A stretch of 40,000 nucleotides of DNA from Zeimonas sediminis (GCF_023721795.1 NZ_JAMQYE010000001.1:2351671-2391670), one strand, 5' to 3'; positions 14,449 to 40,000 are shown, counted from the first letter of the stretch. The notes: a model not told the origin generated them from the sequence alone. Program-made: numbers and translations.

Positions 14449-15495
14449 TCATTGGGACAAGGGCCATTTCACCCAGAACCGCTTGGTCTTTCGCCAGATC
14501 CCGGCCAGGCCCTCGGGCTCGAGCCGCAGGAACAGCAGGATCACCACGCCGTACAGGATTTCCTTGATCTCGTAGATCCGGTCGGTCAGCAGCGCCTGCA
14601 GCGCGGAGCCGCCGTAGCCGAAGGCGATCCGGATGACTTCGTGCAGCAGCGACAGAAAGACAGCGCCCATGATCGCGCCGTGCGTGCGGCCGAGCCCGCC
14701 CACGATGATCATCGCCAGGGCCTCGACGCTCAGCAGCAGGCTGAAGTTGTCGACGTTCACGTAGCGGATGTGCAGCGCCATCAGCGCGCCGGCCACCCCG
14801 GCGTAGAAGGCGCTGACCATGAAGGCCAGCAGCTTGTAGCGGGTCAGGCTGATGCCCATCGCCGAGGCGGCGATGTCGTGGTCGCGGATAGCCTTCCAGG
14901 CGCGCCCGACCTTGCTACGCATCAGGTTCAGCGTGCACAGCGTGAAGGCCACCAGCAGCGCCAGCACCAGCAGGTAGAAGTGCGCCTGCTGGTCGAGGCG
15001 CAGCCCGGCCACCGCGAGCGACGGCACCGGCATGCCGCTGGACCCGCGGGTGATGTCCTCGGAGATCAGGATCAGGTGACGAACGATGTACGCGAAGGCG
15101 AGCGTCGTCAGCGCCAGGTAGAGCCCGCGCAACCGCAGTGACGGAATGCCCACGACCAGGCTCGCGGCCGCCGCGATCGCACCGCTCAGCGGCAGGGCGA
15201 TCCAGCCCGGAACGCCGTAGTCGGTCACCAGGATCGCCTGGGCGTACCCGCCGAGCGCGAGGAAGCCGGCATGGCCGAGCGAGAGCTGGCCTGCCACGCC
15301 GCACAGCAGGTTCAGCCCCAGCACGCCGATCGCCGCGATGCCGGCCATCGTGGCCAGGTTGATCACGTAGCCGCCCGCGAACACCGGCAGCAGCGACAGG
15401 GCCAGCACCGCGCCGGCGGCGTAGACCCAGCCGACCGGGTTCCGGGCCAGGACCACCAGCTGCCCGTAGCTCTCCTTGAAGTCGCCGCTTCGCAT
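14449..15495 (-). CDS. branched-chain amino acid ABC transporter permease (LivM-like)
   Basis: 348 aa from ATG 15493-15495. It is a multi-TM protein with GQLSLGHAGFLALGGY and the VGGLGRTHGAIMGA motif. Confidence 0.85.
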   Translation of the reverse strand: MRSGDFKESYGQLVVLARNPVGWVYAAGAVLALSLLPVFAGGYVINLATMAGIAAIGVLGLNLLCGVAGQLSLGHAGFLALGGYAQAILVTDYGVPGWIALPLSGAIAAAASLVVGIPSLRLRGLYLALTTLAFAYIVRHLILISEDITRGSSGMPVPSLAVAGLRLDQQAHFYLLVLALLVAFTLCTLNLMRSKVGRAWKAIRDHDIAASAMGISLTRYKLLAFMVSAFYAGVAGALMALHIRYVNVDNFSLLLSVEALAMIIVGGLGRTHGAIMGAVFLSLLHEVIRIAFGYGGSALQALLTDRIYEIKEILYGVVILLFLRLEPEGLAGIWRKTKRFWVKWPLSQ

Positions 15496-19988: not shown

Positions 19989-20869
19989 TCTCCGTCGCGC
20001 AAATCACGCGGCCGCGCGCCGGCGGACGGGGTACCCGTCTACCTCGACGTCTCGGGCTCGAGGGAGAGCCCAATCGCGCTGGGCCTCTGCGAGCGCGAGC
20101 ACCGCCACCTCTCCGACGACCAGGCGATCTGCATCGGCTACGCCAACACGATGGCCGACACCAACCACCTACCGCCCGCCCACTGGCTGGCCAACCGGAT
20201 CGGCCGCGAGCTGTTCCGCCTGCGGCTGGAGAAAGGCGCCGGCCAGTTCGGCCCCGACGGCAAGGTGCTGGCGCAGGTGCGCACCGACGGCCACGGCCGG
20301 CAGCCCGAGCGCGTGTCGATCTCGCTGCACAACCACGAAGGCTCCGACTGGTTGCTGCTGCGCAGGATCGCCGAAGAGGCGGTGGCCCGCGCCTGCGCCG
20401 GCAAGAACATGCCCGCGCTGGTGCTGAACGGCGCCGGCATGTTCGTGGCCGGCGGCCCGAACGGCGACAACGGCACCACCGGCAAGAAGCTGGTGATGGA
20501 CGCCTACGGCCCCACGGTGCCGATCGGCGGCGGCGCCTGGTCGGGCAAGGACTTCAGCAAGGTGGGCCGGGCCGGGGGGATGCTGGCGCGGGAGCTGGCG
20601 CTGGTGGCGGTAAGGCGGGCGAGGAGGGAGGCGCGGGTGGAGTGGAGGTACGAGCCGGGTGGGGCGGGGCCGGCCGGGGTGGGGGTTTGGGTGGATGGCC
20701 GGGCAATAGGGTCGGCAGAGATGTGGACGCTATCGGGAGCCGCCACTATGACTTCGGTGTCGCGCGAAGGTTGATTGCCGAGCTCAACGGGCCACTGGCA
20801 GAAAGGGGACGATGGGAGCATTTCAACGCGGTCACCACCAGTGATCGAGGCCGACGGCACGCCGCATGA
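19965..20869 (+). pseudogene. S-adenosylmethionine synthetase (MetK)-like gene lacking the N-terminal domain and probably frameshifted near its 3' end
   Basis: The frame-3 translation runs from the stop at 19962-19964. It reads ...DDQAICIGYANTMADTNHLPPAHWLANRI...GAGMFVAGGPNGDNGTTGKKLVMDAYGPTVPIGGGAWSGKDFSKVGRAGGMLARELA. This aligns by eye with the E. coli MetK middle and C-terminal domains (GDQGLMFGYA...[41 protein letters not shown]). No room or sequence exists for the first ~85 aa. After ~20720 the MetK-like signal seems to continue in frame 2 (...YDFGVARRLIAELNG...) up to 20869. Confidence 0.45.
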
Positions 20870-21118: not shown

Positions 21119-22057
21119 ATGTCCGGTGACTATGTCGTGGTCACAAACTGCACCGCGCGCAAGCGGGCCGGTGCTCCGCTGGTCCGCTTCGACCCGAAGC
21201 CATCGGCCGCCGCGCTCTCCGAGATCGTCGAGGAATGGCGTTCGGCGCTGCGTTCACAACCCGTGCGCTTGCCTGCGAAGGAGCTCTATGTCGGCCGCTC
21301 GATCAGCGAGGCGAAGTGCGTTGCTCAACAATTGCGATGTTCGCTCTTCGTCGTGTCCGCCGGCCTCGGACTGGTCGAAGAAGATGAGATGGTGCCGGGC
21401 TACGACCTTTCCGCCGCTGGCGCCACCTCCGGCTTGACGCCGGTGTTGGCCCGTCACGGCGCATCCGTCGGCGAGTGGTGGAACACCCTAACTGACGGCC
21501 GCGGATTGCGCTGGTTGCTTCAGCGCGCCTCGGGAGCAGTCGTTCTCCTGGCACTGCCTACGGACTATCTTCGACTCGTCAAGGGGGAACTGCAGGAAAT
21601 GCAGCCCGGCGAGATCTCTCGGCTTCGTGTACTTACATCCGAAGCTGGTCGTAGGGAGTTAGCCACTCTCCCCGCTTTACCAGTGATGCCTTATGACGAC
21701 CGACTGGAGTCGATTCCTGGCCTTGCGGGAACTCGGTCGGACTTTCCTCAACGTGCCCTCCGTCACTTCACCGAGCGCCTTGAAGCTCACAGGCTACCAG
21801 CAGACGTGGCTACCCGAGAGGTGCTGCTCGCCTTGGCTAGATGCGAACACCGAGTTCTCCCGCAGCGAGCACGACTGAACGACGAGGAGATTTGCGGCCT
21901 AATCCGCAGCGGTTGGCCGACGTTCGGCGGGAACAGCGCACGACTATTACGCCATCTCCGAGACGACCACAAAGTCGCGTGCGAGCAGGGGCGCTTCGCT
22001 GCCTTGCGGCGCCGCGTCCAACAGGAACTCGTTGAGAGCTCTGCTGCCTCAGGGTGA
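21119..22057 (+). CDS. uncharacterised protein, first gene of the deazaguanine-modification operon (N-terminus reminiscent of DUF6884-type domains)
   Basis: Start placed at ATG 21119 within ORF 21026..22057. YVVVTNCTARKR...AKELYVGRSISEAK...LFVVSAGLGLVEEDEMVPGYD resembles the CSxxK / elY / ilSAkyGL / PYD pattern I recall for DUF6884. The C-terminal ~130 aa is unrecognised. It ends 4 nt before the next gene. Confidence 0.6.
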   Translation: MSGDYVVVTNCTARKRAGAPLVRFDPKPSAAALSEIVEEWRSALRSQPVRLPAKELYVGRSISEAKCVAQQLRCSLFVVSAGLGLVEEDEMVPGYDLSAAGATSGLTPVLARHGASVGEWWNTLTDGRGLRWLLQRASGAVVLLALPTDYLRLVKGELQEMQPGEISRLRVLTSEAGRRELATLPALPVMPYDDRLESIPGLAGTRSDFPQRALRHFTERLEAHRLPADVATREVLLALARCEHRVLPQRARLNDEEICGLIRSGWPTFGGNSARLLRHLRDDHKVACEQGRFAALRRRVQQELVESSAASG

Positions 22058-22061
22058 CAAC

Positions 22062-23204
22062 ATGGCAACTTCAAAGAAGGGAAGGGAAATTGTCATTCGC
22101 GCTCTGCGGACAAGGCAGGGCCCGGGTCTAGACGTCTACGCATTCTTCATTCGCGGCTCGGACATCATTCGCGTGGCCGACATTTCGCGTATCGGACGAG
22201 ACGAACAAGAAGGACTGAAAGGCTTTCAGCGACCGGAGATCCGCACTCATGTGCGCAGCATCGTGGAGTATCTCAATCAAGGCAGCGTGCTGTTTCCGAA
22301 CGCCATTATCCTTGCCCTTTCGCCCGAGGTTCATTTCGCCGCGTCCCGCGGCACCCGTCCGTCCGGTGACGAAGGCATCGCCCAGAGCGGCACCTTGACC
22401 ATCCCGATCTATGAAGAGGGGCGGCGCGTAGCTTGGATCGTTGACGGTCAGCAACGCTCGCTCGCCCTCGCACAGACAGAACGGAAAGACATCTCCGTTC
22501 CCGTCGTTGGGTTCGTTTCCGACAGCCTGGAAGTCCAACGCGAGCAGTTCATCCTCGTTAACAAAGCGAAGCCTCTACCCACGCGTCTCATTAACGAGTT
22601 GCTGCCCGAGACGCGGTCAGTGCTTCTCCCACGGGAACTCAGTGTTCGGCGAGTGCCTGCGGAATTGTGCGGCCTTCTCAACAGAGACCCTGCATCGCCA
22701 TTCTTCGGGCTCATCAAGCGCCCGTCCGATGACTCTCGCGACCGCAATTCTGTCGTCACCGACACGGCGGTTATAAACGTCATCAAGAACAGCATGAACA
22801 ATCCACTGGGCGCCTTGGCCACCTTCCGCCTTAGCTCGAACGGGCGCGATGGCGTCGATGTCGAAAGCATGTACGCCCTATTGGTGACTTTCTGGTCGGC
22901 GGTAAAAGTTGTGTTTCCGGACGCGTGGGGCCGTGACCCGCGCCATAGCCGCCTGATGCACTCCGCGGGCATCGAAGGAATGGGCGTGCTAATGGACCGC
23001 ATCTACGCACGGCTTCAGCCCAGCGCCGACGTTAAAGCCGTCGAGAGCGAATTGCGTAGGGTCGCGCCCTACTGCCGCTGGACAAAGGGTGTCTGGGATA
23101 GCCTCGGGCTGGCGTGGAACGAAATCCAGAGTACGCCGCGCGATATTCGACGTCTGCAGAATGCACTGGTCCAGGCCTACTCGGCAGCAGGGGCCGCGCG
23201 TTGA
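22062..23204 (+). CDS. DGQHR-domain (DndB/DpdB-like, ParB-fold) protein, paralog 1
   Basis: 380 aa from ATG 22062. Motifs present: LKGFQRPEIRTHVRSIVEYL, FPNAIILAL, WIVDGQQRSLAL, QFILVNKAKPLP. Confidence 0.8.
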   Translation: MATSKKGREIVIRALRTRQGPGLDVYAFFIRGSDIIRVADISRIGRDEQEGLKGFQRPEIRTHVRSIVEYLNQGSVLFPNAIILALSPEVHFAASRGTRPSGDEGIAQSGTLTIPIYEEGRRVAWIVDGQQRSLALAQTERKDISVPVVGFVSDSLEVQREQFILVNKAKPLPTRLINELLPETRSVLLPRELSVRRVPAELCGLLNRDPASPFFGLIKRPSDDSRDRNSVVTDTAVINVIKNSMNNPLGALATFRLSSNGRDGVDVESMYALLVTFWSAVKVVFPDAWGRDPRHSRLMHSAGIEGMGVLMDRIYARLQPSADVKAVESELRRVAPYCRWTKGVWDSLGLAWNEIQSTPRDIRRLQNALVQAYSAAGAAR

Positions 23205-24493
23205 AGTTCCTCTATTCCGACACCCAGGATTACGTCGACCCAAAGTACGACTTCCTTAACGACCGCCCGAACCCAAAGCGTGAACGGTACTGGAACGACG
23301 CCTACGCGCATGAACTCATGCGCGAGGCACCCTACGACGGCCTCCTTGTGGCTATGAGCGCAGTGCGCCAAGCCGAGGGCGTCGCTTCGTCGAAAGTGCG
23401 CTACTCGACAGCCGAAGAGCAGCGAATGCTGCGCATCGGCGCCCGAAAGTACCTGCGCTTCGATGGGCCGAAGTTCAAGGATCTGATGCTGATGGGGGAT
23501 TGCGGTGCATTCGCGTACGCGGAGCACCCCCAACCCGCCTACTCGCCAGAGGAAGTGGTCGAGTTCTACCTGGACGCCGAGTTCACACACGGGGTCTCGC
23601 CTGACCACATCATCTTTGAGTGCGACTTGGAGAATCCGCCAGCGAGCGCTATGCCCGAGGCTCAGCGGCGATTTGAGATCACGCTGGAGAACGCCCAAGA
23701 GTTCATCAAACTCGTCCACCAGGAGGGTGACTTCTTCGAGCCAATGGGTGCCGTTCAGGGTTGGTCGCCGCAGAGCATGGCCGACGCTGCCGACAAACTC
23801 GTCAAGATGGGATACGGCTACTTGGCAATCGGCGGACTCGTTCCACTGAAAGTAGACGTTATCAAAACGGTGCTGGAGGCCATCAGGAACAAGATCGGCC
23901 CGGAGCCAAGGCTTCACCTGCTCGGCTTTGCGAAGGCTGATCATATTCATCAGTTCGTCCGCTACGGCATTACCAGTTTCGACTCGACCTCGCCGCTTAT
24001 CCGTGCCTTTAAGGACGACAAGGCCAATTACTACATCGAGAACGGCGAAGGCGGTTTGGACTACTACACTGCAATCCGCATCCCACAGGCTCTCGAGAAC
24101 AGCCGACTGATGCAGGGCGTCAAGCGCGGTTCGTTCAGCGCTGAAGACCTTGCCAAGCGAGAACGGGTCGCCCTTAAAGCGTTACGCGACTTCGATCAAG
24201 AGCGGGGCAGTATCCAGGGGACCGTGGATGCCGTAATGGACTATCACCAGTTCCTAGTCTTGGGTGAAGGGGGCGACGAGAGCGCTCACGCCAAGGCGTT
24301 GTCCAAGATCCGCGAGCGCGTGCAGCGCACACTCGAGGCCCGCCCGTGGAAACGGTGCGATTGCGCAATCTGCGAGGCCGTGGGCGTGGAAGTCATCATC
24401 TTTCGTTCCAGCAACCGGAACAAGCGACGTGGATTCCACAACCTTGGCGTTTATCACCGACACCTGAAGAGAACCCTGGAGCATTCCGCGTGA
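23201..24493 (+). CDS. dpdA: DpdA-type (TgtA5) DNA-guanine transglycosylase
   Basis: Start placed at TTG 23201, which overlaps the upstream stop (TTGA) and is preceded by AGCAGGGG. This gives MKFLYSDTQDYVDPKYDF..., a DpdA-like N-terminus. TIM-barrel-like segments are present: GYGYLAIGGLVPL, LHLLGFA, TSFDSTSP. The C-terminal TGT-type zinc motif is CDCAIC-x22-H. An upstream ATG at 23114 is an alternative start. Confidence 0.8.
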   Translation: MKFLYSDTQDYVDPKYDFLNDRPNPKRERYWNDAYAHELMREAPYDGLLVAMSAVRQAEGVASSKVRYSTAEEQRMLRIGARKYLRFDGPKFKDLMLMGDCGAFAYAEHPQPAYSPEEVVEFYLDAEFTHGVSPDHIIFECDLENPPASAMPEAQRRFEITLENAQEFIKLVHQEGDFFEPMGAVQGWSPQSMADAADKLVKMGYGYLAIGGLVPLKVDVIKTVLEAIRNKIGPEPRLHLLGFAKADHIHQFVRYGITSFDSTSPLIRAFKDDKANYYIENGEGGLDYYTAIRIPQALENSRLMQGVKRGSFSAEDLAKRERVALKALRDFDQERGSIQGTVDAVMDYHQFLVLGEGGDESAHAKALSKIRERVQRTLEARPWKRCDCAICEAVGVEVIIFRSSNRNKRRGFHNLGVYHRHLKRTLEHSA

Positions 24494-25563
24494 GCGTCTA
24501 TCAATACTCTGCAATCCGAGCACGCCAGGCTGCGGAGCATGACGTCTTCGTCTTCGCTGCGAACCCCAAAGAGGTACTGGAATTCGCGCAGATCGAACGC
24601 GTTGGACGCTCGGACGATGGGCAACTCAAGGGATTTCAGCGGCATCAGATCGCATCGCATATCCGCGATATCCGAGACTATCTGAGCCGCGCAGATGCGC
24701 TTCTGCCCAACGCTGTGATTGTGGCCTTTATCGAGGGGGTGACAGTCAGGGACGTCGGCGACGGGCGGCTGGAAGTGTCAATTGACGCCCGCAAGACCCC
24801 TCCAGGATTTGTCGTCGACGGACAGCAACGCCTAACTGCGCTTTCTGGGCTGGACAAGCCAGATTTCCAGGTGTTCGTATCTGCCGTCGTGTGCAAGAAC
24901 TACGACGAGCTTCGCCAGCAGTTCGTACTCATCAACAGCACTCGGCCGCTCCCCAAGACCCTGATTTACGAGCTACTGCCAACTGTTGAGGGCCTGCCGC
25001 AGCGGTACACGTCGCGCCGCTTTGCGGCCAGGGTGGTAGAGCGACTCAATTTCACCGGCGGCCGGGCACTGCGCGGCGAGATTCGTCAACACACCAATCC
25101 ATCCGGTGTCATCAGTGACACGGCCATGCAGAAACTCGTGATGAACTCGGCCGCGCACGGCGCTATCCGCGAGTTCATCCAATACGAAGATCGTGAAGAT
25201 CGTGCCGTCTCCCTAATCAACGAGTTCTTCGAAGCTGTAGCCACGGTATTTGGCGGCCAGTGGGTCGGCATGAGTCCACGCGTTTCGCGTCTTCGTCATG
25301 GAGCGGGGATCGTCGCCATGGGCTTTGTGATGGATCTGCTCCACTCCTCCCAGGGGGCGACCACCAAAGATGGCTTCGTGCCCGGGCTCGAATTGCTCAA
25401 ACCCTTTACGGCTTGGACCTCTGGCACTTGGAAGATGGACGACTGCGAGTTTGTCTGGAACGACATTCAGAACACTCCCTCCGACATCGACCTCCTTACG
25501 CGTCATCTCGTGTCAGCCACAAAGCGGCAGCTTCGCAAACTGCGTCGGGCCGCCAACGCTTGA
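24490..25563 (+). CDS. DGQHR-domain (DndB/DpdB-like) protein, paralog 2
   Basis: Start placed at GTG 24490, which overlaps the dpdA stop (GTGA) with GGAG 10-13 nt upstream. Motifs present: LKGFQRHQIASHIRDIRDYL, LPNAVIVAF, FVVDGQQRLTAL, QFVLINSTRPLP. It is colinear with paralog 1. Confidence 0.8.
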   Translation: MSVYQYSAIRARQAAEHDVFVFAANPKEVLEFAQIERVGRSDDGQLKGFQRHQIASHIRDIRDYLSRADALLPNAVIVAFIEGVTVRDVGDGRLEVSIDARKTPPGFVVDGQQRLTALSGLDKPDFQVFVSAVVCKNYDELRQQFVLINSTRPLPKTLIYELLPTVEGLPQRYTSRRFAARVVERLNFTGGRALRGEIRQHTNPSGVISDTAMQKLVMNSAAHGAIREFIQYEDREDRAVSLINEFFEAVATVFGGQWVGMSPRVSRLRHGAGIVAMGFVMDLLHSSQGATTKDGFVPGLELLKPFTAWTSGTWKMDDCEFVWNDIQNTPSDIDLLTRHLVSATKRQLRKLRRAANA

Positions 25564-25569
25564 ATAGTC

Positions 25570-26277
25570 ATGAGCACTTCCGCACTCGTCTTGTTCTCCG
25601 GCGGTCAGGATTCCGCCACGTGCCTTGCATGGGCGTTGGACCGTTATGACTTCGTCGAGACGGTGGGCTTCGACTATGGTCAACGGCACAGGGTTGAAAT
25701 GGAGTGCCGAGAGATCTTTCGAAGCGAACTGCGGAGTCACTTCCCTGCATGGGGCGGGAGACTTGGCGATGACCACCTTCTGGATCTAGGACTTCTTAGC
25801 CGAATTAGCGACACAGCACTCACCGCCGAGAAGCAGATTGAGTTCGACGAATCAGGGCTTCCGAATACGTTTGTTCCAGGCCGCAATCTCTTGTTCTTCA
25901 CTCTGGCCGCCGCGATTGCCTACCGTCGCGGCCACAAGATCCTCGTGGGCGGGATGTGCGAGACTGACTATTCGGGCTATCCGGACTGCCGCGACGACAC
26001 GCTCAAAGCTCTTCAGGTAACACTGAATCTTGGTTTGAACTCTCGCCTTGTCGTTGAGACCCCGCTTATGTGGATCGACAAGGCCCGCACGTGGACACTC
26101 GCCCAACAACTTGGCGGAGACGCGCTAGTTGCCCTCATACGAGAGAAGACGCACACCTGCTACCTGGGCGATCACGAGACTTGGCATGACTGGGGCTATG
26201 GCTGCGGGACTTGCGCGGCCTGCGAATTGCGTCTCAGAGGCTATGAGGCATTCGCCCGCGAGGAGGGAGCCAAATGA
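25570..26277 (+). CDS. queC: 7-cyano-7-deazaguanine (preQ0) synthase QueC
   Basis: 235 aa. PP-loop [12 protein letters not shown]; also [18 protein letters not shown]. The C-terminal zinc-site cysteines are C...CGTCAAC. Confidence 0.9.
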
Positions 26278-27371
26278 ACCAACCGGTTATTGTGACCCAG
26301 GCGACGGCGGGGTTTGAGGCGGCGCGCCAAGTGGACGTATTACCCGAAGGACATCGGTGTCGCTCACTGCACGGCCATAGCTTTCAGGCCACTGTGTTCG
26401 CTGAACTGCCAGAAGGCTTTGCCGCTTATCCAGGCGGCGAAGTCGACGCACTTAGCGCCCGTCTCGACGAGTGCGTGTCTCAGCTGAACTATGCGTATCT
26501 CAATCGTGTGATGCCGCAACCTACCGATGAGAACATCGCGCGATTCCTCCGTGAACAGTTGAGGATTCCGGGTATCGATCGTGTCGCGATCCAGAGTACG
26601 ACAATGCAGGGAGTGGATCTGAATCGGGAGGGACAGGCCCACGTGTGGCGGCGATTCCGATTTCAAGCAGCACACCGACTTCCGAACGTACCGCTAGGGC
26701 ACAAGTGCGGCCGAATGCATGGCCACGGTTTTGAGGCGATCATCCACGCAAACCAAGACCTTGGAACTCGTCCATTAAGCACTGACTACGACCACCTTGA
26801 TTCCGTGTGGGCACCGTTGCACGCGCAACTTAACTACCAGTGCCTAAATGAAATCGAGGGCCTCGAAAACCCAACTAGCGAGAACCTGGCCGGGTGGATC
26901 TGGCGGCAACTGAAGCCCGCACTGCCCGAGCTATCTTGGGTGACCGTTTTTGAGACGGCATCTTGTGGTGCGCACTTCGACGGCGAGAACTACCGCATCT
27001 GGAAGGAATTCACACTCGATAGCGCCGTGCGTTGCGAGCGCGCCCCGGAAGGCTCAGATCGTAACCGTACGCACGGTCACACTTATACGCTTCGACTCCA
27101 CCTTGACGCACCACTGAACGAGATCCTCGGTTGGACCGTCGACTTCGGTGACGTCAAGACCATCTTCGACCCAATCTTCAAGTCTATCGACCACCAGATG
27201 CTCAATGGGCTCCCGGGATTGGCTGACGGGAACGCGGCCAGCGTGGCACGATGGATTTTGGATCAGGCCCGACCAAAACTTCCTCACCTCTCCCGCGTCG
27301 ATCTTCACGAAACCCCCGGCACCGGTTGCCTCATAGCAGATAACCTCGACGGTCCGACAATGCCGGTCTGA
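26274..27371 (+). CDS. queD: triple-tandem QueD / 6-carboxytetrahydropterin synthase (PTPS-fold) protein
   Basis: 365 aa, ATGA overlap with queC. It has three ~115-aa modules (about aa 8-118, 124-238, 241-355). Module 2 is close to E. coli QueD: [26 protein letters not shown]...[15 protein letters not shown]...FETASCGA. Modules 1 and 3 are degenerate copies. Confidence 0.8.
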
Positions 27372-27594
27372 CCAACACTAAAGGCTGATTTCGCGAGGAA
27401 ATAACACATCACTTACCTCGACTACCTGGAGTTGTAGCCACAGCGACCTTCTAGCCGACCCGAATGAGAATCATGCGGGGAGTCACGCCACCACCTACCT
27501 CGACCTCCACTGCTGCCAACATACGGGTACTTGACACCTGCACACCAGTGTCAAAGCCAACAAGAGTCGCTACCTCCGTTCTCGATCATCTCTG

Positions 27595-28500
27595 CTAACC
27601 CCCTTCTCGACCTGGCACCTGCCGCCCTTTTTCCCTCGGACTCCAGTCCACCGACAAAGGTGCCACCATTCTTTCCCTTATACAAGCCTGACACATCGTC
27701 GAGCAATTCGCCGGAATACTCAAGCCCGTCCGCACTCGCTTATAGACAAAAAGCTCAGCGTAACTCGGCGAAACGCCGCATCCATCACACTTGCCATCGC
27801 GGCACAGAACGATCCACCGATGGGTTAGCCCGATCTGCCCGACCGCCTGAAAATCATTTCGCTCAAAGAAATCGAACGCAAACTGGGATGTAGCCCACGA
27901 AAGGAGATCGCGCTTGCCCGCATTGCACGACAAACAGGCAATCGCCCAGTTCTTCGCCTCCGGTGGGTCATCACCGATGTGCTTGGGCAACATATGCTCC
28001 AAGCTCTCTTCAACGTTGGGATCACTAAAGAGCGCCCCGCACCAAATACAACGCCCACCTTGCCTTCCCATAACCTTTGTGTACAACGGGTAGTCCGACT
28101 TAAGCGTACCGATCTTCGCCACCTGCGCCCTCGCGGCAGTTGCTGTCAGACCCCGAAGTTTGGCGATATTAATGATCAGATTACGAAGTTCCGCTTTGCT
28201 TTCGCTCGAGATCTGAATACCCAATTCTCCCAGATGCTCGTCGATAAGGGCGTCGTAACTCACGTTTGCAGGCGCGTGCAACGCCTTCTCCGGAATCAGC
28301 GTAAACAATATAGAGTGCCGAATTGCCGGTTCTAGACCGGCAGTGAGACTTTCCAAGGGTTTCCCCAAGGTTCGCGCCCAATCCACCAAGGCAGCGAAAA
28401 GAGTCGGCCACGAATCTGATCTGCCCCTTACGCCCTCCAAGAAATAAGTGTCACTTCTGAGCACCTGGGACACGAGGGAATTTAAGATCTCGCTCGACAT
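27595..28500 (-). CDS. HNH endonuclease-domain protein with extra C-terminal Cys cluster
   Basis: 301 aa. HNH core at aa 151-196: CIWCG...SLEHMLPKHIG...NWAIACLSCNAGK. Second cluster: CRDGKCDGCG...CSTMCQAC. The N-terminal ~140 aa is unrecognised. Its start lies 12 nt after the stop of the upstream DGQHR gene. Confidence 0.75.
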   Translation of the reverse strand: MSSEILNSLVSQVLRSDTYFLEGVRGRSDSWPTLFAALVDWARTLGKPLESLTAGLEPAIRHSILFTLIPEKALHAPANVSYDALIDEHLGELGIQISSESKAELRNLIINIAKLRGLTATAARAQVAKIGTLKSDYPLYTKVMGRQGGRCIWCGALFSDPNVEESLEHMLPKHIGDDPPEAKNWAIACLSCNAGKRDLLSWATSQFAFDFFERNDFQAVGQIGLTHRWIVLCRDGKCDGCGVSPSYAELFVYKRVRTGLSIPANCSTMCQACIRERMVAPLSVDWSPREKGRQVPGREGG

Positions 28501-30498: not shown

Positions 30499-32058
30499 TC
30501 ACCTGTCGGATGCGAGGAACCTGGCCAACACCACCATCGCCCACGTATCCATCGCGCAGTACCTCCTCAGCGCCCCCTCCAGCTCCGCCCGCCTCGCCTC
30601 GCCGGTCTCCGGGGCGATCGCCTCCAGGTACGCCGCCTGCGCAGCCGCGCCGTGCTGCACTTCGTCGAGCAGGCCGTAGTCGACCCCGCCGGGGATCGTG
30701 GGCAGCACCGCCTTGATCGAGCGCGAGCCGCACATGTCGGGGTGGTAGTAGTGCGCGCGCACCAGCGGCAGCAGGTCCACCAGGCGCCGGGCGATCCGGT
30801 TGAGCGGCCTTGCCAGGTCGGGGAACTCGCCGGCGAGCGCGCGCAGCACGCTGCGCTCGAAGCCGGCGTTGTAGACGATGACCGGGCCTGCGGCCGGCAG
30901 CTCGCGCGCGAGCGCTTCGGCGCAGGCGCGGCGCGGGTCGGCGCCGCTCAGGTCCAGGAAGGCGGCTTCGCGCACCTGGCCTTCGTCCGACGGCCCTTCT
31001 TCTGATGACCCTTCTCCCGGCGGCCCTTCCTCGATCTGGCACGACCACTGGAACGGCAGCTGCTGGTAGGGCCGGGTACCGGGCCACTGGGGCACGGCGA
31101 AGCCGATCGTTTCGAAGTCCAGGTAGGCGCGCGGCCAGCCCAGCCCGGCGAGCTTCTCGGCGGCCTGCGGCTCGAGCAGCGGCGCGCCTTCGCGGGTGAC
31201 GCGGGCGATCATGGCCAGCTCGGGGTCTTCGATGCGCCCGGGCGGTACGCTGCGCAGGTCATCAAAGCCTTCGGCCAGCAGCTGGGCGGCCAGCTTCTTG
31301 CCCTTGGTATTGGGCAGCAGCGTGACCGGGTACTCGGGCTGCGGGCCCGCTAGACGCGCGCAGTGCGCCTGGAACGGGCAGTCGAAGGGCGAGCGGCACT
31401 GCTCGCCCATCGCGATGGCGGGCTCGTCGCCCTGCAGGATGCGTTCGGCCTCGCGCACCCAGCGCGGCACCTGGTCGAGCAGCGGCTCGGTGGCGGCGGT
31501 GAGGTCCTCGCGCGCGAACAGGCCCGCGTAGTCGGAGCCGCCGGGCCAGATCCAGCTGGTGTCCACGTGCCACTGCTCCACGCCTGCCAGCGGCGCCAGG
31601 GGGCCGGCCGCCCAGGAGTCGTCCTTCAGCTGCCCCTGCAGCACCCAGCGCTGGATCGCCACGTCGGCCAGGTGGTAGTCGCGCACCGAGCTGGTCGACT
31701 TGACCTCGGCGAGCCGCCAGCCGCCGGGCGCGGGCAGCAGCAGGTCGGCGCGCACCAGCACGCCGTCGCGCTCGAAGGTGGCCTCGTAGAGCGGGCGGCG
31801 CGGCGCGGCGGCGAGCAGCTCGCGGGTGAGGCGCAGCGCCTCGGCCAGGTCGGGCCGGTCGGTGCCGGGCACGCGCGGGTCGATCAGCGTGCCGCCGGGC
31901 GCCAGCGTGCGCGCGACCTCGCCCACCCGGTGGCCGGCGGCGAATACCAGCTGGGTGACGGCCGAGTCTTCGCGCAGCTCGGGGTGGCGGACCTGCAGCC
32001 ACAGGCGTTTGGGGCACTGCTGCAGGTCTTGCAGGCGGGATTTGGAGAGGCGGGGCAT
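30499..32058 (-). CDS. DUF2779-type protein: Cas4/RecB-like PD-(D/E)XK nuclease with Fe-S cysteines fused to an RNase-H-fold exonuclease-like domain
   Basis: 519 aa. The N-terminus SKSRLQDLQQCPKRLWL plus ...RADLLL...WRLAEVKSTS and CRSPFDCPFQAHC gives four Cys, as in Cas4/AddB. The C-terminal half reads YLDFETIGFAVP...IVYNAGFERSVL...YCAMDTWAMV. Confidence 0.7.
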   Translation of the reverse strand: MPRLSKSRLQDLQQCPKRLWLQVRHPELREDSAVTQLVFAAGHRVGEVARTLAPGGTLIDPRVPGTDRPDLAEALRLTRELLAAAPRRPLYEATFERDGVLVRADLLLPAPGGWRLAEVKSTSSVRDYHLADVAIQRWVLQGQLKDDSWAAGPLAPLAGVEQWHVDTSWIWPGGSDYAGLFAREDLTAATEPLLDQVPRWVREAERILQGDEPAIAMGEQCRSPFDCPFQAHCARLAGPQPEYPVTLLPNTKGKKLAAQLLAEGFDDLRSVPPGRIEDPELAMIARVTREGAPLLEPQAAEKLAGLGWPRAYLDFETIGFAVPQWPGTRPYQQLPFQWSCQIEEGPPGEGSSEEGPSDEGQVREAAFLDLSGADPRRACAEALARELPAAGPVIVYNAGFERSVLRALAGEFPDLARPLNRIARRLVDLLPLVRAHYYHPDMCGSRSIKAVLPTIPGGVDYGLLDEVQHGAAAQAAYLEAIAPETGEARRAELEGALRRYCAMDTWAMVVLARFLASDR

Positions 32059-35392: not shown

Positions 35393-35652
35393 CCTGGACG
35401 GTCGTCTTTGCGAAACACGCGCTCAAGGACGCCAGGAAGCTGGCGGCGGCAGGCCTGAAGCCCCGGACCGAGGAACTCCTGAAGCTGCTGGCCGAGGATC
35501 CGTTCCGGAACCCGCCACCCTACGAGAAGCTGGTCGGTGACCTTGCCGGCGCCTGGTCGCGCCGCATCAACATCCAGCACCGGCTGGTCTACGAGGTCTT
35601 CACCGAGCGAAGGACCGTGCGCGTGCTCCGGATGTGGTCCCACTACGAATGA
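35389..35652 (+). CDS. yoeB: Txe/YoeB-family toxin
   Basis: The GTG start at 35389 overlaps the yefM stop (GTGA). VTWTVVFAKHALKDARKLAAAGLKPRTEELLKLLAEDPFRNPPPYEKLVGDLAGAWSRRINIQHRLVYEV...VRVLRMWSHYE. Confidence 0.85.
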   Translation: MTWTVVFAKHALKDARKLAAAGLKPRTEELLKLLAEDPFRNPPPYEKLVGDLAGAWSRRINIQHRLVYEVFTERRTVRVLRMWSHYE

Positions 35653-36238
35653 ACCGGCCAAGCTCCCGCGCCGGCATCCCCTGGATCTCGCACAACAAGC
35701 CGTGCGTGACCGCCCCCAGCCGGAACCTGGCCACCAGCTCCTCCTCGAGCCGAACCAGCAGGCTCGCCGCCATCTCGGCGTCGGCCAGCGCGCGGTGGTA
35801 GCGGCCGGCCACCGGCAGGCCGGCGAACTCGACCAGCGTGCCCAGCTTGTGGTTGGGCGCATGCGGAAGCAGCCTGCGCGCGAGCAGCATCGTGCAGGCG
35901 AAGTCCTGCGTGCGCGAGCGGCCCGCGCGGGCCAGCTCGGCGTCCCAGAACTTTCGGTCGAACGACGCGTTGTGCGCGGCCATCGGATTGCCGCCCACGA
36001 AGTCGGCCACCTCGCGCATCACCCTGGCGGCCGGCGGCGCGGCGCGGACCATCTCGTTGCTGATGCCGGTCAGTGCCTCGATGAAGGGCGGCACCCAGGC
36101 GCCCGAGTTCATCAGGCTCTGGTAGCGGTCGACGACCACGCCGTCGCGCACCAGCACCGCCGCGATCTCGGTGGCGCGCGCGCCGTGCTCGGGCGAGATG
36201 CCGGTGGTTTCGAAGTCGATGACGGCGATGGTGTCCAT
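35600..36238 (-). CDS. DEDDh 3'-5' exonuclease (DNA polymerase III epsilon-like)
   Basis: 212 aa from ATG 36236-36238. Exo I IAVIDFETTG; Exo II AAHNASFDRKFW; Exo III HRALADAEM. The 3' end overlaps yoeB convergently by 53 nt. Confidence 0.8.
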   Translation of the reverse strand: MDTIAVIDFETTGISPEHGARATEIAAVLVRDGVVVDRYQSLMNSGAWVPPFIEALTGISNEMVRAAPPAARVMREVADFVGGNPMAAHNASFDRKFWDAELARAGRSRTQDFACTMLLARRLLPHAPNHKLGTLVEFAGLPVAGRYHRALADAEMAASLLVRLEEELVARFRLGAVTHGLLCEIQGMPARELGRFIRSGTTSGARARSFAR

Positions 36239-36279
36239 CAGCTCTGTTGCGCCAATCGGTGAACAGTGAATCTCGAGGG

Positions 36280-36528
36280 TCAGGGGCGCTCGTCGCCCTC
36301 TCGCGGAGGAACGCCGCCTTTGCGCCGGAGGATCCGCCGGAATGCTTCGAGATCCGCGCGGCCCTTGCGCTCGGCGAAGTAGGCCGCCGTGTTCATCGCT
36401 GCCAGTTTCTCGGCCACGGCGGTTGCGACGAACTGGTTCATGCTGATGCCCTCCTCGCGCGCGAGCTTCTCGACGGCCGCTTTCAGCGACTTCGGAAGGC
36501 GCAGCGAACAAGTCGAGGTTTCACCCAT
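36280..36528 (-). CDS. ribbon-helix-helix antitoxin-like protein (HicB/Arc-type)
   Basis: 82 aa from ATG 36526-36528: SLRLPKSLKAAVEKLAREEGISMNQFVATAVAEKLAAM.... No toxin partner was recognised. Confidence 0.65.
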   Translation of the reverse strand: MGETSTCSLRLPKSLKAAVEKLAREEGISMNQFVATAVAEKLAAMNTAAYFAERKGRADLEAFRRILRRKGGVPPREGDERP

Positions 36529-36873: not shown

Positions 36874-38361
36874 TCAAGCCGGCCAAACCGCCGCATGACT
36901 CCCCGGCGGCATCGAAGGCCTGGCCCACCCCGCCGGCGTGCGCGACAGCAGCGCCGCATGCCGCACCGCGGTCAGCTCGCCGAAGCCCGATGCCGAGGTC
37001 TCCAGGTAGGGCCCGAGCTCGGGCTTGCCGGCCGAGAAGCCGTCGGCCACCCGCCCCAGCCCGCGCAGCCAGTGGCCGGTCTGCGCGAGCGACACGCGCA
37101 CCAGCCAGCTGCCGCCCTCGAGCTGCTGGCGGCGCAATGCGGCCGCGGCGCCGAAGGCGATCAGGTAGCCGGTGGCTTGGTCGAGGATCTGCATCGGCAG
37201 GGCTCGCGGGGTGGGCTCGGCTGCCTTGCCGGCGGCGCCAGCGGAGCCGGCAGCCGCTGCAGCCGCCGCCGCCTCGCCCTCGGCCCGGTTGAAGCCCATC
37301 GCGGTCTGCACCAGCGAGTCGAAGCCGCGCCTGCCCGCCCACGGCCCCTCCGTGCCGTAGGCCGACAGCGACACGCACACGATGCCCGGCCGCTTGCGGG
37401 CCAGCTCCTCGGGCCCGTAGCCGAGCGAGTCCAGCCCGCCCGGCCGGTAGCCCTGCACGAACACGTGCGCGTCTTCGAGCAGCCGGTCCATCGCGGCGCG
37501 GCCTTCCGGCTCGCGCAGGTCGACCAGCGCCGACAGCTTGCCGCGGCTGGTGTCGGCGATCGCCTCGATGTTGGGCAGGTGCGGCGCGTTGACCAGCATC
37601 ACGTCGGCGCCGTAGGCGGCGAGCGCGCGCCCGCCCACCGGGCCGGCCAGGATGCGGGTGAGGTCCAGCACGCGGATGCCGGCCAGCGGCGGCGCGTCGT
37701 CGGAGAGCGCGGGCAGGGCATGCGACGGCGCATCCCCGATCCGCTCGATCGTGAACAGCGGCTGCGCGGCCACCGCCCTGCCCTGCGGCGTGGCGTCCCA
37801 CTCCTCGAAGCTGCGCAGCGCGGTGGCCACCAGGCCGGCCTCGGCGGTGGCGGTCTCGAAGTCCAGCGCGCGCCAGCCGAGCATCGCCTGCTGCGCGTCC
37901 TCGCGCGTGGCGGTGGCCGGGTCCAGCCCCATCAGCCGCAGCGCGCCCTCGCGGTGGTGCGCGAAGTTGGCGTGCACCCGCACCCAGCCGTCGGCGCAGC
38001 GGTACAGGCCCGAGAACTTGTCCCACAGGTCGGGCACCTGGCCGTCGATCGCGAACCAGCCCAGGCACTCGATCGCGGCGTGCAGCATGTCGACCGAGAC
38101 CTGCTGGCGGCCGAAACCGGCGGCGGCCGACCCCGCGCTCGCCGAGCCGGCGCCGCGCCCTGTCTCCAGCCTCAGCGCGCCCAGCTCGCAGGCCGCCAGC
38201 GCCGCTGCGGCGATCGTGGCCTGCGCCGCGGTGCCCACCGCGAACGACGAAGGCAGCACCGGCTCGCTGCCGGTGAGGCGAACGTGCCCGAGGGCGTCGG
38301 TCGGCAGCCCCGCCAGCTGCCAGAGGTCGGCAAGGACCTTCGCGGAATCCGGATCGCGCAT
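36874..38361 (-). CDS. CoA-transferase family III (CaiB/BaiF-like) protein
   Basis: Start placed at ATG 38359-38361. GIRVLDLTRILAGPVGGRALAAYGADVMLV...VFVQGYRPGGLDSLGYG...SLSAYG..GPWAGRRGFDSLVQ. It carries a poly-Ala insertion. Confidence 0.8.
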   Translation of the reverse strand: MRDPDSAKVLADLWQLAGLPTDALGHVRLTGSEPVLPSSFAVGTAAQATIAAAALAACELGALRLETGRGAGSASAGSAAAGFGRQQVSVDMLHAAIECLGWFAIDGQVPDLWDKFSGLYRCADGWVRVHANFAHHREGALRLMGLDPATATREDAQQAMLGWRALDFETATAEAGLVATALRSFEEWDATPQGRAVAAQPLFTIERIGDAPSHALPALSDDAPPLAGIRVLDLTRILAGPVGGRALAAYGADVMLVNAPHLPNIEAIADTSRGKLSALVDLREPEGRAAMDRLLEDAHVFVQGYRPGGLDSLGYGPEELARKRPGIVCVSLSAYGTEGPWAGRRGFDSLVQTAMGFNRAEGEAAAAAAAAGSAGAAGKAAEPTPRALPMQILDQATGYLIAFGAAAALRRQQLEGGSWLVRVSLAQTGHWLRGLGRVADGFSAGKPELGPYLETSASGFGELTAVRHAALLSRTPAGWARPSMPPGSHAAVWPA

Positions 38362-38410
38362 GGCCGAAGTCTGCCACCGCTTGCGATGCTTGCGTCCTAA
38401 ACTCGGCGAC

Positions 38411-40000
38411 ATGGCCCGAATCGTTCCCGAAGAGATCGACGCCGCGAAGGCGCGCGGCCAGGCGCGCCGCGAGATCGAGACGCTGGAGGCGCTCGAGCGT
38501 GAGCTGTCCGCCGAGTACACCGTGTACCACGGCGTGCACTGGGCACATTCGGACGCCTCCGCCGCCTTCTACGGCGAGATCGACTTCGTGGTCGTGAACC
38601 GTTGCGGCCGGGCGATCGCGATCGAGCAGAAGAACGGCGGGCTGGAGTCCGACGGGCAGGACCTGCTGAAGCGCTACGGGACCGGCGCGAAATCGGTGAG
38701 CGCGCAGGTCGGCCGCAACCTGCGCGGCCTGATGCGCGAGTTCTCGCGCCGCTTCCCGAAGGGCGGGCGGCTCGACATCGACCACCTGCTCTACCTTCCC
38801 GACCACGCGCTCGCCGGCCCCACGCCGGCCTCGGTGGACCCGGCTCGCGTCGTCGACGCGCGCTCGCCCGAATCGCTGGCGAAGCGTATCGAGGCACTGT
38901 TCGACGAGCGACCGATGCCGGCGAGCCAGGGCGCCACCGGTCTGCGGCCTGCCGACGCGTCGGACGTGCACGCCTTCCTGTCCGAGCGGCTGGACCTGGT
39001 GCCGAGCATCGACGCGATCTCGCGCAACGCGCGCGAGCAGTACGCGCGGCTGTCCGGCGGCCTGGCCACCTGGGCGCGCCGCCTGTCGATGCAGCCCTTC
39101 AGGCTGCGGGTGCGCGGCACCGCCGGCTCGGGCAAGACGCAGCTGGCGCTGGCCGAGCTGCGCGCCGCGCACGAAGCGGGCCGCAGCGCGCTCTACCTGT
39201 GCTTCAACCGGCCGCTGGCCGACGCGATGCGCAAGGCGGCGCCGAAGCCCGGCACCTGCATGACCTTCCACGAGCTCGGCGACCGGCTGCTGAAGCAGCG
39301 CGGCGAGCCTGTGGACTACGCGCAGCCGGGCGCCTTCGAGCGGCTGGCGGACGCGGTGGTGGCGGCGGCCGGCGGCGCGAGCGATGCGCACCGCGACCCG
39401 GATGCGCGCGGCGCCGCGGTCGACGACCTGCGCGCCTCGGTCGACTTGCTGATCGTCGACGAGGGCCAGGACTTCGAGCCGCGCTGGGCCGAGGCGCTGG
39501 AGCGGATGGTGGCGCCGGCGGGCCGGCTGCTGTGGCTCGAGGACCCGTCGCAGAACCTGTACCGGCGCGAGTCGGCGGCGCTGCCCGGCTGGGTGACACT
39601 GGAGTCGCCGGTCAACTACCGCTCGCCGCAGGTGATCGTGGCGCTGGTCAACATGCTGGGCCTGGTCGATCACGAGGTCGAGGCGGGTGGCGCGGTGCAC
39701 GGCTTCGAGATTCCGCTCACCGAGTACGCCGACCGCGGGCCCGGAGCCGCCGACGGCGATTGCGGGGAGCCGGAACCCTTCGGCCTCGACCGCTGCCGCA
39801 CGATCGCCGAGCCACGGCCGTCGGCGGGTGGCCGCGAGGCGCCGGGTGATCGCGGAGCCGCCGCGACCGGGTCACGCGCCGATTCGCGCGCTGATTCGCT
39901 GCACGCCCGGACCGACCAGGCGGTCGGCGCGCTGCTCGACGCCGGCCACGCCCCGGCCGACATCGCGGTGGTCTGCTGGCACGGCCTGGCGAGCTCCCGG
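38411..40000 (+). CDS. NERD-domain nuclease fused to SF1 (UvrD-like) helicase/ATPase, 3' end outside window
   Basis: It is not in the ORF track because it has no stop in the window. I translated it by hand from ATG 38411 and it is open for 530 codons to base 40000. NERD/PD-(D/E)XK: YTVYHGVHW...GEIDFVVVNRCGRAIAIEQKNG. Walker A GTAGSGKT; Walker B LLIVDEGQDF. The tail is ...AGHAPADIAVVCWHG. Confidence 0.75.
   Translation, partial: MARIVPEEIDAAKARGQARREIETLEALERELSAEYTVYHGVHWAHSDASAAFYGEIDFVVVNRCGRAIAIEQKNGGLESDGQDLLKRYGTGAKSVSAQVGRNLRGLMREFSRRFPKGGRLDIDHLLYLPDHALAGPTPASVDPARVVDARSPESLAKRIEALFDERPMPASQGATGLRPADASDVHAFLSERLDLVPSIDAISRNAREQYARLSGGLATWARRLSMQPFRLRVRGTAGSGKTQLALAELRAAHEAGRSALYLCFNRPLADAMRKAAPKPGTCMTFHELGDRLLKQRGEPVDYAQPGAFERLADAVVAAAGGASDAHRDPDARGAAVDDLRASVDLLIVDEGQDFEPRWAEALERMVAPAGRLLWLEDPSQNLYRRESAALPGWVTLESPVNYRSPQVIVALVNMLGLVDHEVEAGGAVHGFEIPLTEYADRGPGAADGDCGEPEPFGLDRCRTIAEPRPSAGGREAPGDRGAAATGSRADSRADSLHARTDQAVGALLDAGHAPADIAVVCWHGLASSR

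Follow-up and report, generated by a model that had tools for sequence, protein, structure and literature searches.

Does a locus for 7-deazaguanine DNA modification (Dpd) that has none of the known restriction genes beside it only mark DNA, or does it carry an effector of its own? This question is raised by a 40,000-nt stretch of the Zeimonas sediminis genome (GCF_023721795.1, NZ_JAMQYE010000001.1:2351671-2391670), in the following called the window. Six genes at 21119-27371 had been described in an initial annotation, made from the sequence alone, as a non-canonical Dpd operon. Two more genes, designated G8 and G7, lie in the same low-GC island and converge on the operon from the minus strand; they were outside the set considered before. 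From the analyses presented here it appears fairly probable, though far from certain, that the island is a compact Dpd system composed of a modification cassette and an effector arm formed by G8 and G7.

The dpd modification cassette

All six genes are plus-strand open reading frames (ORFs) without internal stops, and the spacings reported for them, +4, -4, -4, +6 and -4 nt, were found to be correct. Such spacing is typical of translational coupling and indicates a single predicted operon in the order dpdC-dpdB1-dpdA-dpdB2-queC-queD(x3). The features of the island are (aa, amino acids):

21119-22057, plus strand: dpdC, 312 aa, ATG start
22062-23204, plus strand: dpdB1, 380 aa, ATG start
23201-24493, plus strand: dpdA, 430 aa, TTG start
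24490-25563, plus strand: dpdB2, 357 aa, GTG start
25570-26277, plus strand: queC, 235 aa, ATG start, 7-cyano-7-deazaguanine (preQ0) synthase
26274-27371, plus strand: queD(x3), 365 aa, ATG start, triple-repeat QueD/6-pyruvoyltetrahydropterin synthase (PTPS)
27372-27594, no strand: convergent junction, the position of queE in relatives; no queE remnant
27595-28500, minus strand: G7, HNH nuclease, 301 aa
28513-30009, minus strand: G8, divergent DGQHR/ParB-like protein, 498 aa
21000-30450 (approximate borders), no strand: low-GC island with all eight genes, about 9.4 kb

The assignment to the Dpd type was borne out by protein family models. DpdA reached 541 bits with NCBIfam model NF041059 (cut-off 200), and the alignment starts at profile position 1, which backs the TTG start codon. 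When compared to the structure of DpdA from Salmonella Montevideo (7UI4), the protein aligned over its full length (304 bits, E 1.7e-89) and was found to keep Asp95, Asp256, Phe265 and the zinc site. Asp95 and Asp256 are known to be catalytically important in S. Montevideo DpdA (PMC10164549). The zinc motif CDCAIC had been recognised before, but the histidine follows after 21 residues and not after 22, so that the site reads CxCxxC-x21-H (CDCAIC-x21-H).

The two proteins encoded on either side of dpdA belong to the DpdB family, with 459 bits for DpdB1 (PADLOC DpdB, E 3e-138) and 374 bits for DpdB2 in model NF041060 (cut-off 300). They had been introduced as DGQHR proteins, but both carry DGQQR, as does S. 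Montevideo DpdB, at residue 128 in DpdB1 and at residue 110 in DpdB2. DpdB1, which also contains the motifs GFQR and FxLxN, is of the ParB-like ATPase class, and the two paralogs are 34% identical over their full length (BLASTP). The first gene of the operon, left as an unknown 312-aa protein in a locus where nothing was recognised as DpdC, in fact specifies a full-length DpdC: residues 2-304 cover positions 4-309 of the 312 positions of PADLOC profile PDLC02815 (E 2.6e-84). Pfam DUF6884 is matched weakly (25 bits, cut-off 30), and no match was obtained with the NCBIfam models. QueC is canonical (TIGR00364, 193 bits, cut-off 150; Pfam QueC, E 2e-65), and the last gene contains three PTPS/QueD stretches, in agreement with the original assignments. 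With DpdA, both DpdBs and QueC above the NCBIfam cut-offs and DpdC covered in full, the locus can, as judged by profile matches, be counted among the genuine Dpd systems as far as its modification half is concerned.

In vitro, the activities of S. Montevideo DpdA, DpdB and DpdC have been reconstituted; there, DpdC converts preQ0-DNA to ADG-DNA, and Salmonella DpdB acts as a homodimer (PMC10164549). By strong homology to such characterised proteins, the modification steps of the Zeimonas cassette can be proposed. QueD(x3) and QueC would boost the synthesis of preQ0; since the island lacks queE, FolE and QueE would have to be provided by the host. In double-stranded DNA, DpdA would replace guanine by preQ0, with DpdB as the ATPase driving the exchange. 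DpdB1 and DpdB2, the genes of which flank dpdA in every relative, probably form a heterodimer. DpdC would finally convert the nitrile of DNA-bound preQ0 to the amide dADG.

To place the cassette among related loci, 11 loci recruited with DpdA (52-82% DpdA identity) were compared, originating from Piscinibacter, Rhizobium, Solimonas, Caldimonas, Rubrivivax and others. The order dpdC-dpdB-dpdA-dpdB-queC was present in all of them, the second dpdB always being at the same position, and the triple QueD was of full length in the ten loci extending past queC (L011 ends within queC). Genomes of Ideonella and Ramlibacter show the same operon order. DpdA identity is 69-82% to a group including Piscinibacter L001, Rubrivivax L010 and Solimonas L003, and 57% to Ideonella L012 (tblastn). 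In the ten relatives reaching that far, queE (TIGR04508, 345 bits) follows the triple queD. Restriction genes are also found: L010 contains DpdD, DpdK and DpdJ and L003 DpdE, all at equivalog level, L007 has DpdE- and DpdF-like genes below the equivalog cut-offs, and Ramlibacter (L093) harbors DpdD, a PLD-domain gene and a DEAD helicase. The idea of a rewired component set is not supported, since the order is the same in all related loci and many of them have canonical DpdD, DpdK, DpdJ or DpdE. In the queE gene of L002, a metagenome-assembled genome of Rhizobium, the reading frame appears split in two (6392-7023), possibly by a frameshift or an assembly error.

The absence of a DpdD-K set, on the other hand, was confirmed for the 40-kb window: PADLOC gave no DpdD-K match among the 31 other ORFs, and no remnants of DpdD, DpdE, DpdF, DpdJ or DpdK were detected by tblastn with the proteins of the relatives. 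Likewise, no queE was detected in the window by tblastn with QueE from L001 and L010; its absence had not been noted in the initial annotation. For preQ0 synthesis, the operon contains queC and queD(x3), and the genes for FolE and QueE may lie outside the window in the same genome. The cassette represents a subtype that is widespread in Proteobacteria and that, when complete, also comprises queE and dpdD-K, both absent here.

A survey from 2025 lists 2,335 unique dpd islands, among them islands without a restriction operon, with or without dpdC. In it, dpdB is duplicated more often than any other gene (801 extra copies), QueD was counted in 78% of the islands, and HNH genes were noted near restriction-less islands (bioRxiv 10.1101/2025.02.24.639861). 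Two DpdBs, a restriction-less island and an island-borne QueD, presented initially as departures from the canonical system, had thus been published already. Taken by itself, the six-gene locus is a known Dpd system and a modestly new variant, its unusual features being either a misreading, as for DpdC, or published variants.

Compared to the dpdA-K cluster of S. Montevideo, the locus shares the aspartates and zinc site of DpdA, a ParB-like DpdB with DGQQR, DpdC, preQ0 genes in the island, and horizontal acquisition. It differs by two DpdB paralogs flanking dpdA in the order C-B-A-B, by a triple-fusion QueD, by the lack of queE and, within 40 kb, of DpdD-K, and by the adjoining DGQHR and HNH genes. 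Loci of the same subtype (L093, L010, L003, L012, L001) have the identical order and the full-length triple QueD in common with it, but they continue with queE, followed in L093, L010 and L003 by DpdD/K/J or DpdE. Among them, a G8/HNH pair without DpdD-K nearby is shared only by Ideonella and, more distantly, by Piscinibacter. The restriction-less islands of the GATOR-GC survey resemble the locus in dpdAB(C) without dpdD-K, an extra dpdB, queD plus queC, and an HNH gene nearby, but neither the pair of a DGQHR paralog and HNH nor the triple QueD with its repeat-specific pattern is singled out there (bioRxiv 10.1101/2025.02.24.639861).

A different combination of genes was seen beside the same cassette on plasmid pB41S5 of Bradyrhizobium sp. 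41S5 (L094, 12337-24304), which was the single, weak match in a plasmid search with G8. A G8-like gene and its partner, both annotated as hypothetical, are followed by genes for a PD-(D/E)XK nuclease and a DEAD/DEAH helicase and then by DpdB-DpdA-DpdB-QueE-QueD-QueC, names that the NCBI pipeline has already given. This represents another restriction-gene combination, here on a plasmid.

The G8/G7 gene pair and its linkage to dpd genes

G8 scored 58 bits with the DpdB model (cut-off 300) and 45.7 bits with the DGQHR domain (cut-off 58.85; the domain models were TIGR03187 and PF14072, DndB/DGQHR), and no Pfam domain was matched. The protein contains the motifs GYQR45, DGQHR206-210 and FTVVN241 as well as a disordered acidic insert at 137-164, and residues D206-R210 are invariant in the family alignment. 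An AlphaFold2 (AF2) model was obtained with a pLDDT of 85.4. Profile searches against the Protein Data Bank yielded spurious matches of the acidic region only, and no dnd genes were found near G8. The family, for which a library clustered at 50% identity yielded 233 representatives at E<=1e-30, consists of proteins of about 500 aa without Pfam domains, which are annotated as 'hypothetical' or 'DGQHR domain-containing protein'. G8 itself is 100% identical to M6I34_11265 of Burkholderiaceae bacterium FT117.

G7, which starts 12 nt after the end of G8, gave weak matches to HNH (PF01844, 17.9 bits, below cut-off), retron-HNH and PtuB models. A zinc site is predicted at C151/C154/C189/C192, and H169, N184 and N193 are the predicted catalytic residues. 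In an alignment of 60 members, the core RC..C / L[DE]H..P / D / NW / C..CN.GK is conserved at 70-90% or more, and the N-terminal part of about 135 aa is hypervariable. The G7 and G8 families both diverge fast, and within them the catalytic and zinc residues of the HNH protein and the DGQHR motif are retained. The gene has been called by NCBI as M6I34_11260 with 237 aa. The 301-aa ORF is matched over 96-100% of its length by homologs of 294-306 aa, so that the upstream ATG at 28500 is the better start.

Searches with G8 alone recruited 81 further loci, three genomic and 78 metagenomic. For 57 of these, at least 900 bp downstream of G8 were available. An HNH partner gene was located directly downstream on the same strand in 52 loci by a strict script (median gap 75 bp), and it is present in the other five as well, which were script artefacts, giving 57 of 57. 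When the 23 G8 loci of at least 11 kb were considered, 18 contained DpdA, and among the five without it, three offer less than 1.2 kb of downstream sequence. Identity of G8 across the DpdA-linked loci ranges from 23 to 66%. DpdD-K, by comparison, was detected by tblastn in only four of the 23. In Cystobacter fuscus, the genes are arranged on one strand as G8-HNH-DpdC-DpdB-DpdA-DpdB, and Ideonella (L012) shows the arrangement of the window plus queE. No DpdD-K genes were found within about 10 kb in the window, Ideonella and Cystobacter, nor within about 3.4 kb beyond the pair in L001; for the flanks of 12 G8 loci (PADLOC, 45 ORFs, 55 families matched), DpdD-K was not among the 25 listed.

The flanks of G8/dpd loci, including L017 (16716-19985), contain genes similar to mad3/mad8 of MADS and genes for Mokosh MkoA, PD-T4-6 kinases, PglW, and DndB. 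By their predicted gene content, these islands are situated in defence hotspots. In L005 (14927-16641) and L009 (14887-16991), a distant HNH-like gene followed by a distant third DGQHR gene was observed between queE and dpdD. The order of the two genes is the reverse of that in the window, and both loci have DpdD/K-type genes downstream.

A ParB/Srx-fold NTPase with DGQxR, coupled to a His-Me nuclease and reading DNA modification, defines the GmrSD/SspE/BrxU class (PMC4619093), and in GrwAB a two-protein version senses 7-deazaguanine DNA (PMC12137116). The pair resembles GmrSD, SspE, BrxU, GrwAB and TgvAB in combining a ParB/Srx-like NTPase carrying DGQxR with a His-Me (HNH-type) nuclease, the two functions residing in a single polypeptide or in two. 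However, G8 falls into the DGQHR/DndB branch, not DUF262, and has the motif DGQHR, and G7 is a classic CxxC/CxxC HNH protein (CxxC...EH...N...CxxCN), not DUF1524. Because Pfam detected neither of the GmrSD domains DUF262 and DUF1524 in G8/G7 and the nuclease is a classic HNH, the pair is, by domain content, not a member of the GmrSD/SspE class. It is regarded as a candidate for a compact effector arm with a logic like that of SspE or GmrSD. For the effector steps we infer that G8, as a ParB-like NTPase, may read the modification state of DNA and license the HNH nuclease G7. The result would be a system resembling restriction-modification (R-M) that distinguishes self from non-self, reduced from ten genes to eight.

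The triple QueD

The product of queD(x3) scored 146 bits with the QueD model (cut-off 89). In the AF2 model (pLDDT 88.7, pTM 0.88), three T-fold units are predicted, each matching single-domain QueD at a TM of about 0.9 on the target. A solved structure with three QueD units in one chain was not found. The repeats are listed with their residues at the active-site positions H16, C27, H31, H33, D70, H71 and E110 (E. coli QueD numbering):

26274-26630, plus strand: PTPS stretch R1, with R, C, H, H, N, Y, S
26631-26993, plus strand: PTPS stretch R2, with H, C, H, H, N, Y, E
26994-27371, plus strand: PTPS stretch R3, with V, R, H, H, D, H, E

The zinc triad together with Cys27 and Glu110 is kept only in R2, and Asp70-His71 only in R3; R1 is largely degenerate, and none of the three repeats has the complete catalytic set. 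R2 contains the CxxxHGH motif and is 44-47% identical to single-domain QueD (E. coli QueD, 4NTK/4NTM). Comparison with E. coli QueD (PTPS-III, PDB 4NTK/4NTM) reveals the QueD fold in each repeat and the zinc triad and Glu110 in R2, but single-T-fold subunits homo-oligomerise in E. coli, whereas three units are fused in one chain here, with R2 and R3 each holding part of the catalytic residues. As the Cys-Asp-His triad of PTPS is intersubunit according to the title of Burgisser et al. (1995), one composite active site formed by R2 and R3 is plausible from the residue pattern. The proteins of about 365 aa constitute a large family of at least 120 clusters, which is already annotated as QueD. Across this family, the repeat-specific pattern is invariant at 62-87% identity, and the triple QueD occurs in dpd islands of this subtype in every context examined. 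With its complementary residues, it offers a testable case of fusion and specialisation of T-fold subunits, although the wider reach is limited.

Besides the triple QueD, an extra single-domain PTPS/QueD is encoded after queE in Ramlibacter montanisoli (L093, 11729-12178) and in L001 (about 14809-15141). These genes raise the question which copy supplies CPH4 synthase activity in such relatives.

Alternative roles of the pair and surroundings of the island

Several observations speak against G8/G7 as the effector arm of a compact Dpd system, and the effector link to Dpd is one that we infer. With G8 as the query, the best Foldseek matches were ParB, Noc, KorB and sulfiredoxin, none of them significant (E > 0.4). 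A fused G8-G7 (DGQHR-HNH) protein was not seen in the family searches. DpdD-K, QueE and FolE may lie elsewhere in the 3.25-Mb genome, and, lacking queE, the island has to rely on the host for preQ0. The pair is an accessory and not a strict replacement of DpdD-K, since L005, L009, L055 and L089 carry both. In L031 (9923-13045), G8-HNH is accompanied by a lone QueC, 68% identical to that of the window, and a serine recombinase, and no DpdA, DpdB or DpdC was found within 10 kb of the pair. An obligate R-M relation is called into question above all by this locus. A distant pair in L080 is located among DNA methyltransferases without linkage to dpd genes. Both loci are hard to reconcile with a nuclease killing unmodified self DNA. 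L031 has the appearance of a decayed island in which the pair has outlived the modification genes.

Some of these findings would also be explained if the cassette were a modification-only orphan Dpd module, with a role outside restriction, such as epigenetic marking or protection from other nucleases, or left over after loss of dpdD-K, and if G8/G7 were an independent defence system, for instance a stand-alone restriction or abortive-infection nuclease, that happens to reside in the same island. Dpd islands without restriction genes are documented (bioRxiv 10.1101/2025.02.24.639861), the pair occurs with and without DpdD-K and persists in L031 and L080 without DpdABC, and related flanks are rich in Mokosh, MADS and PD-T4-6. 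Moreover, the window is a mosaic, the cassette being closest to L001 and the pair closest to L012. Nevertheless, such an independent coexistence is considered unlikely. The presence of DpdA in 18 of 23 long G8-recruited loci, at G8 identities as low as 23%, is a far tighter association than generic clustering in defence islands, G8 and dpd genes are sometimes organised in one co-directional array, and G8 is a paralog of the system's own DpdB.

A role of the pair in the modification step itself was judged clearly improbable. In that case, G8 would be a DndB-like regulator or targeting factor of the dpd operon and G7 a nicking enzyme opening DNA for base exchange at additional sites. DndB, the founding DGQHR protein, has been described as a DNA-binding regulator and not as a core enzyme (PMC5699537), G8 is related to DpdB, and the pair is found beside dpdABC whether or not DpdD-K is present. 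However, S. Montevideo DpdA, DpdB and DpdC are sufficient for modification in vitro (PMC10164549), the pair is missing in eight of the 11 DpdA-recruited loci, and the hypervariable N-terminus of G7 is more like that of an arms-race effector than of a housekeeping cofactor.

It was regarded as very improbable that the island is a remnant of a full Dpd system, decaying and without function, that has lost queE and dpdD-K and whose QueD active sites have degenerated. While queE and dpdD-K are indeed absent here and present in many close relatives, and no QueD repeat retains a full catalytic set, all eight ORFs are intact and translationally coupled, and conserved catalytic residues are found in DpdA, both DpdBs, G7 and G8. 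The invariance of the repeat pattern in a large QueD family argues for selection and not for decay. DNA homology to L001, the closest relative of the cassette (74% identity, 22086-27369), stops cleanly at the stop codon of the triple queD, with no pseudogene debris beyond.

That the transglycosylase is a tRNA-guanine transglycosylase (TGT) or ArcTGT, in an operon for queuosine or archaeosine modification of tRNA, is hardly conceivable and was rejected on family scores: distant similarity to the TGT superfamily exists (Pfam TGT, 33 bits), but 541 bits for DpdA stand against 39 bits for ArcTGT (cut-off 350) and 26 bits for Tgt (cut-off 307), the best solved relative is 7UI4 with E 1.7e-89 compared to 3.6e-05 for ArcTGT, and the gene is embedded between two DpdB genes next to DpdC, so that the enzyme groups with DpdA, as initially assigned, and not with the tRNA enzymes.

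Type IV restriction of 7-deazaguanine DNA by G8/G7 is likewise unlikely, since a 7-deazaguanine writer is nearly always encoded beside the pair.

If G8/G7 is taken as the effector arm of the island, a more specific proposal can be made, which is possible but on the whole doubtful. In this proposal, the pair would read 7-deazaguanine marks and restrict unmarked DNA as a two-gene alternative to the eight-gene DpdD-K set, and in combination with dpdC-B-A-B it would make up a complete Dpd R-M system of the smallest size. The triple QueD, in turn, would be a pseudo-trimer within a single chain, with one composite site, zinc and Cys coming from R2 and Asp-His from R3. The chemistry of modification by DpdA, DpdB and DpdC is understood, but the mechanism of Dpd restriction is not. 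Should the pair indeed read these marks, it would provide a two-gene, genetically tractable entry to this question and a third example of readers made up of a ParB-like NTPase and a His-Me nuclease, after SspE for phosphorothioate and GmrSD/GrwAB for hypermodified bases. Otherwise, the locus would be an ordinary member of an annotated system, and the value of the analysis would lie in the correction that the 'unknown' gene is dpdC and the architecture a common subtype. In the literature searched, the tie of the pair to dpdABC and the repeat pattern of the triple QueD appear to be undescribed, although an earlier mention is possible.

The GC content of the island is 0.51-0.61, compared to about 0.70 in the flanks, with 52-63% for individual island genes, and GC at third codon positions (GC3) is 0.61-0.73 in island genes and about 0.9 in flanking host genes. 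Based on these low values, the island is horizontally acquired. Neither a tRNA gene nor att-like flanking repeats were found at its edges, Rfam families including the preQ1 riboswitch were not detected, and no promoter or terminator signals above chance were present, including a terminator in the convergent junction 27372-27594. For this reason, the borders and the regulation of the island can be given only approximately.

Genes in the flanks specify a LIV-type ABC transporter, an acyl-CoA ligase and helix-turn-helix regulators. Abutting the left border, a plus-strand ORF of 207 aa (20151-20774) with a host-like GC3 of 0.91 shows a partial match to the C-terminal domain of S-adenosylmethionine synthetase and the motif GGGAWSGKD, and it is either a truncated or a stand-alone MetK-like protein. 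At the right border, a DUF2779 protein of 519 aa is encoded on the minus strand (30499-32058; GC3 0.93, host-like), for which PADLOC gave no match. Two more genes are located outside the island in DNA of host GC: a DEDDh exonuclease-like gene on the minus strand (35600-36511; PADLOC PDC-S48/DEDDh, E about 1e-36) and a NERD/UvrD-like gene on the plus strand (37652-40000), which runs past the end of the window.

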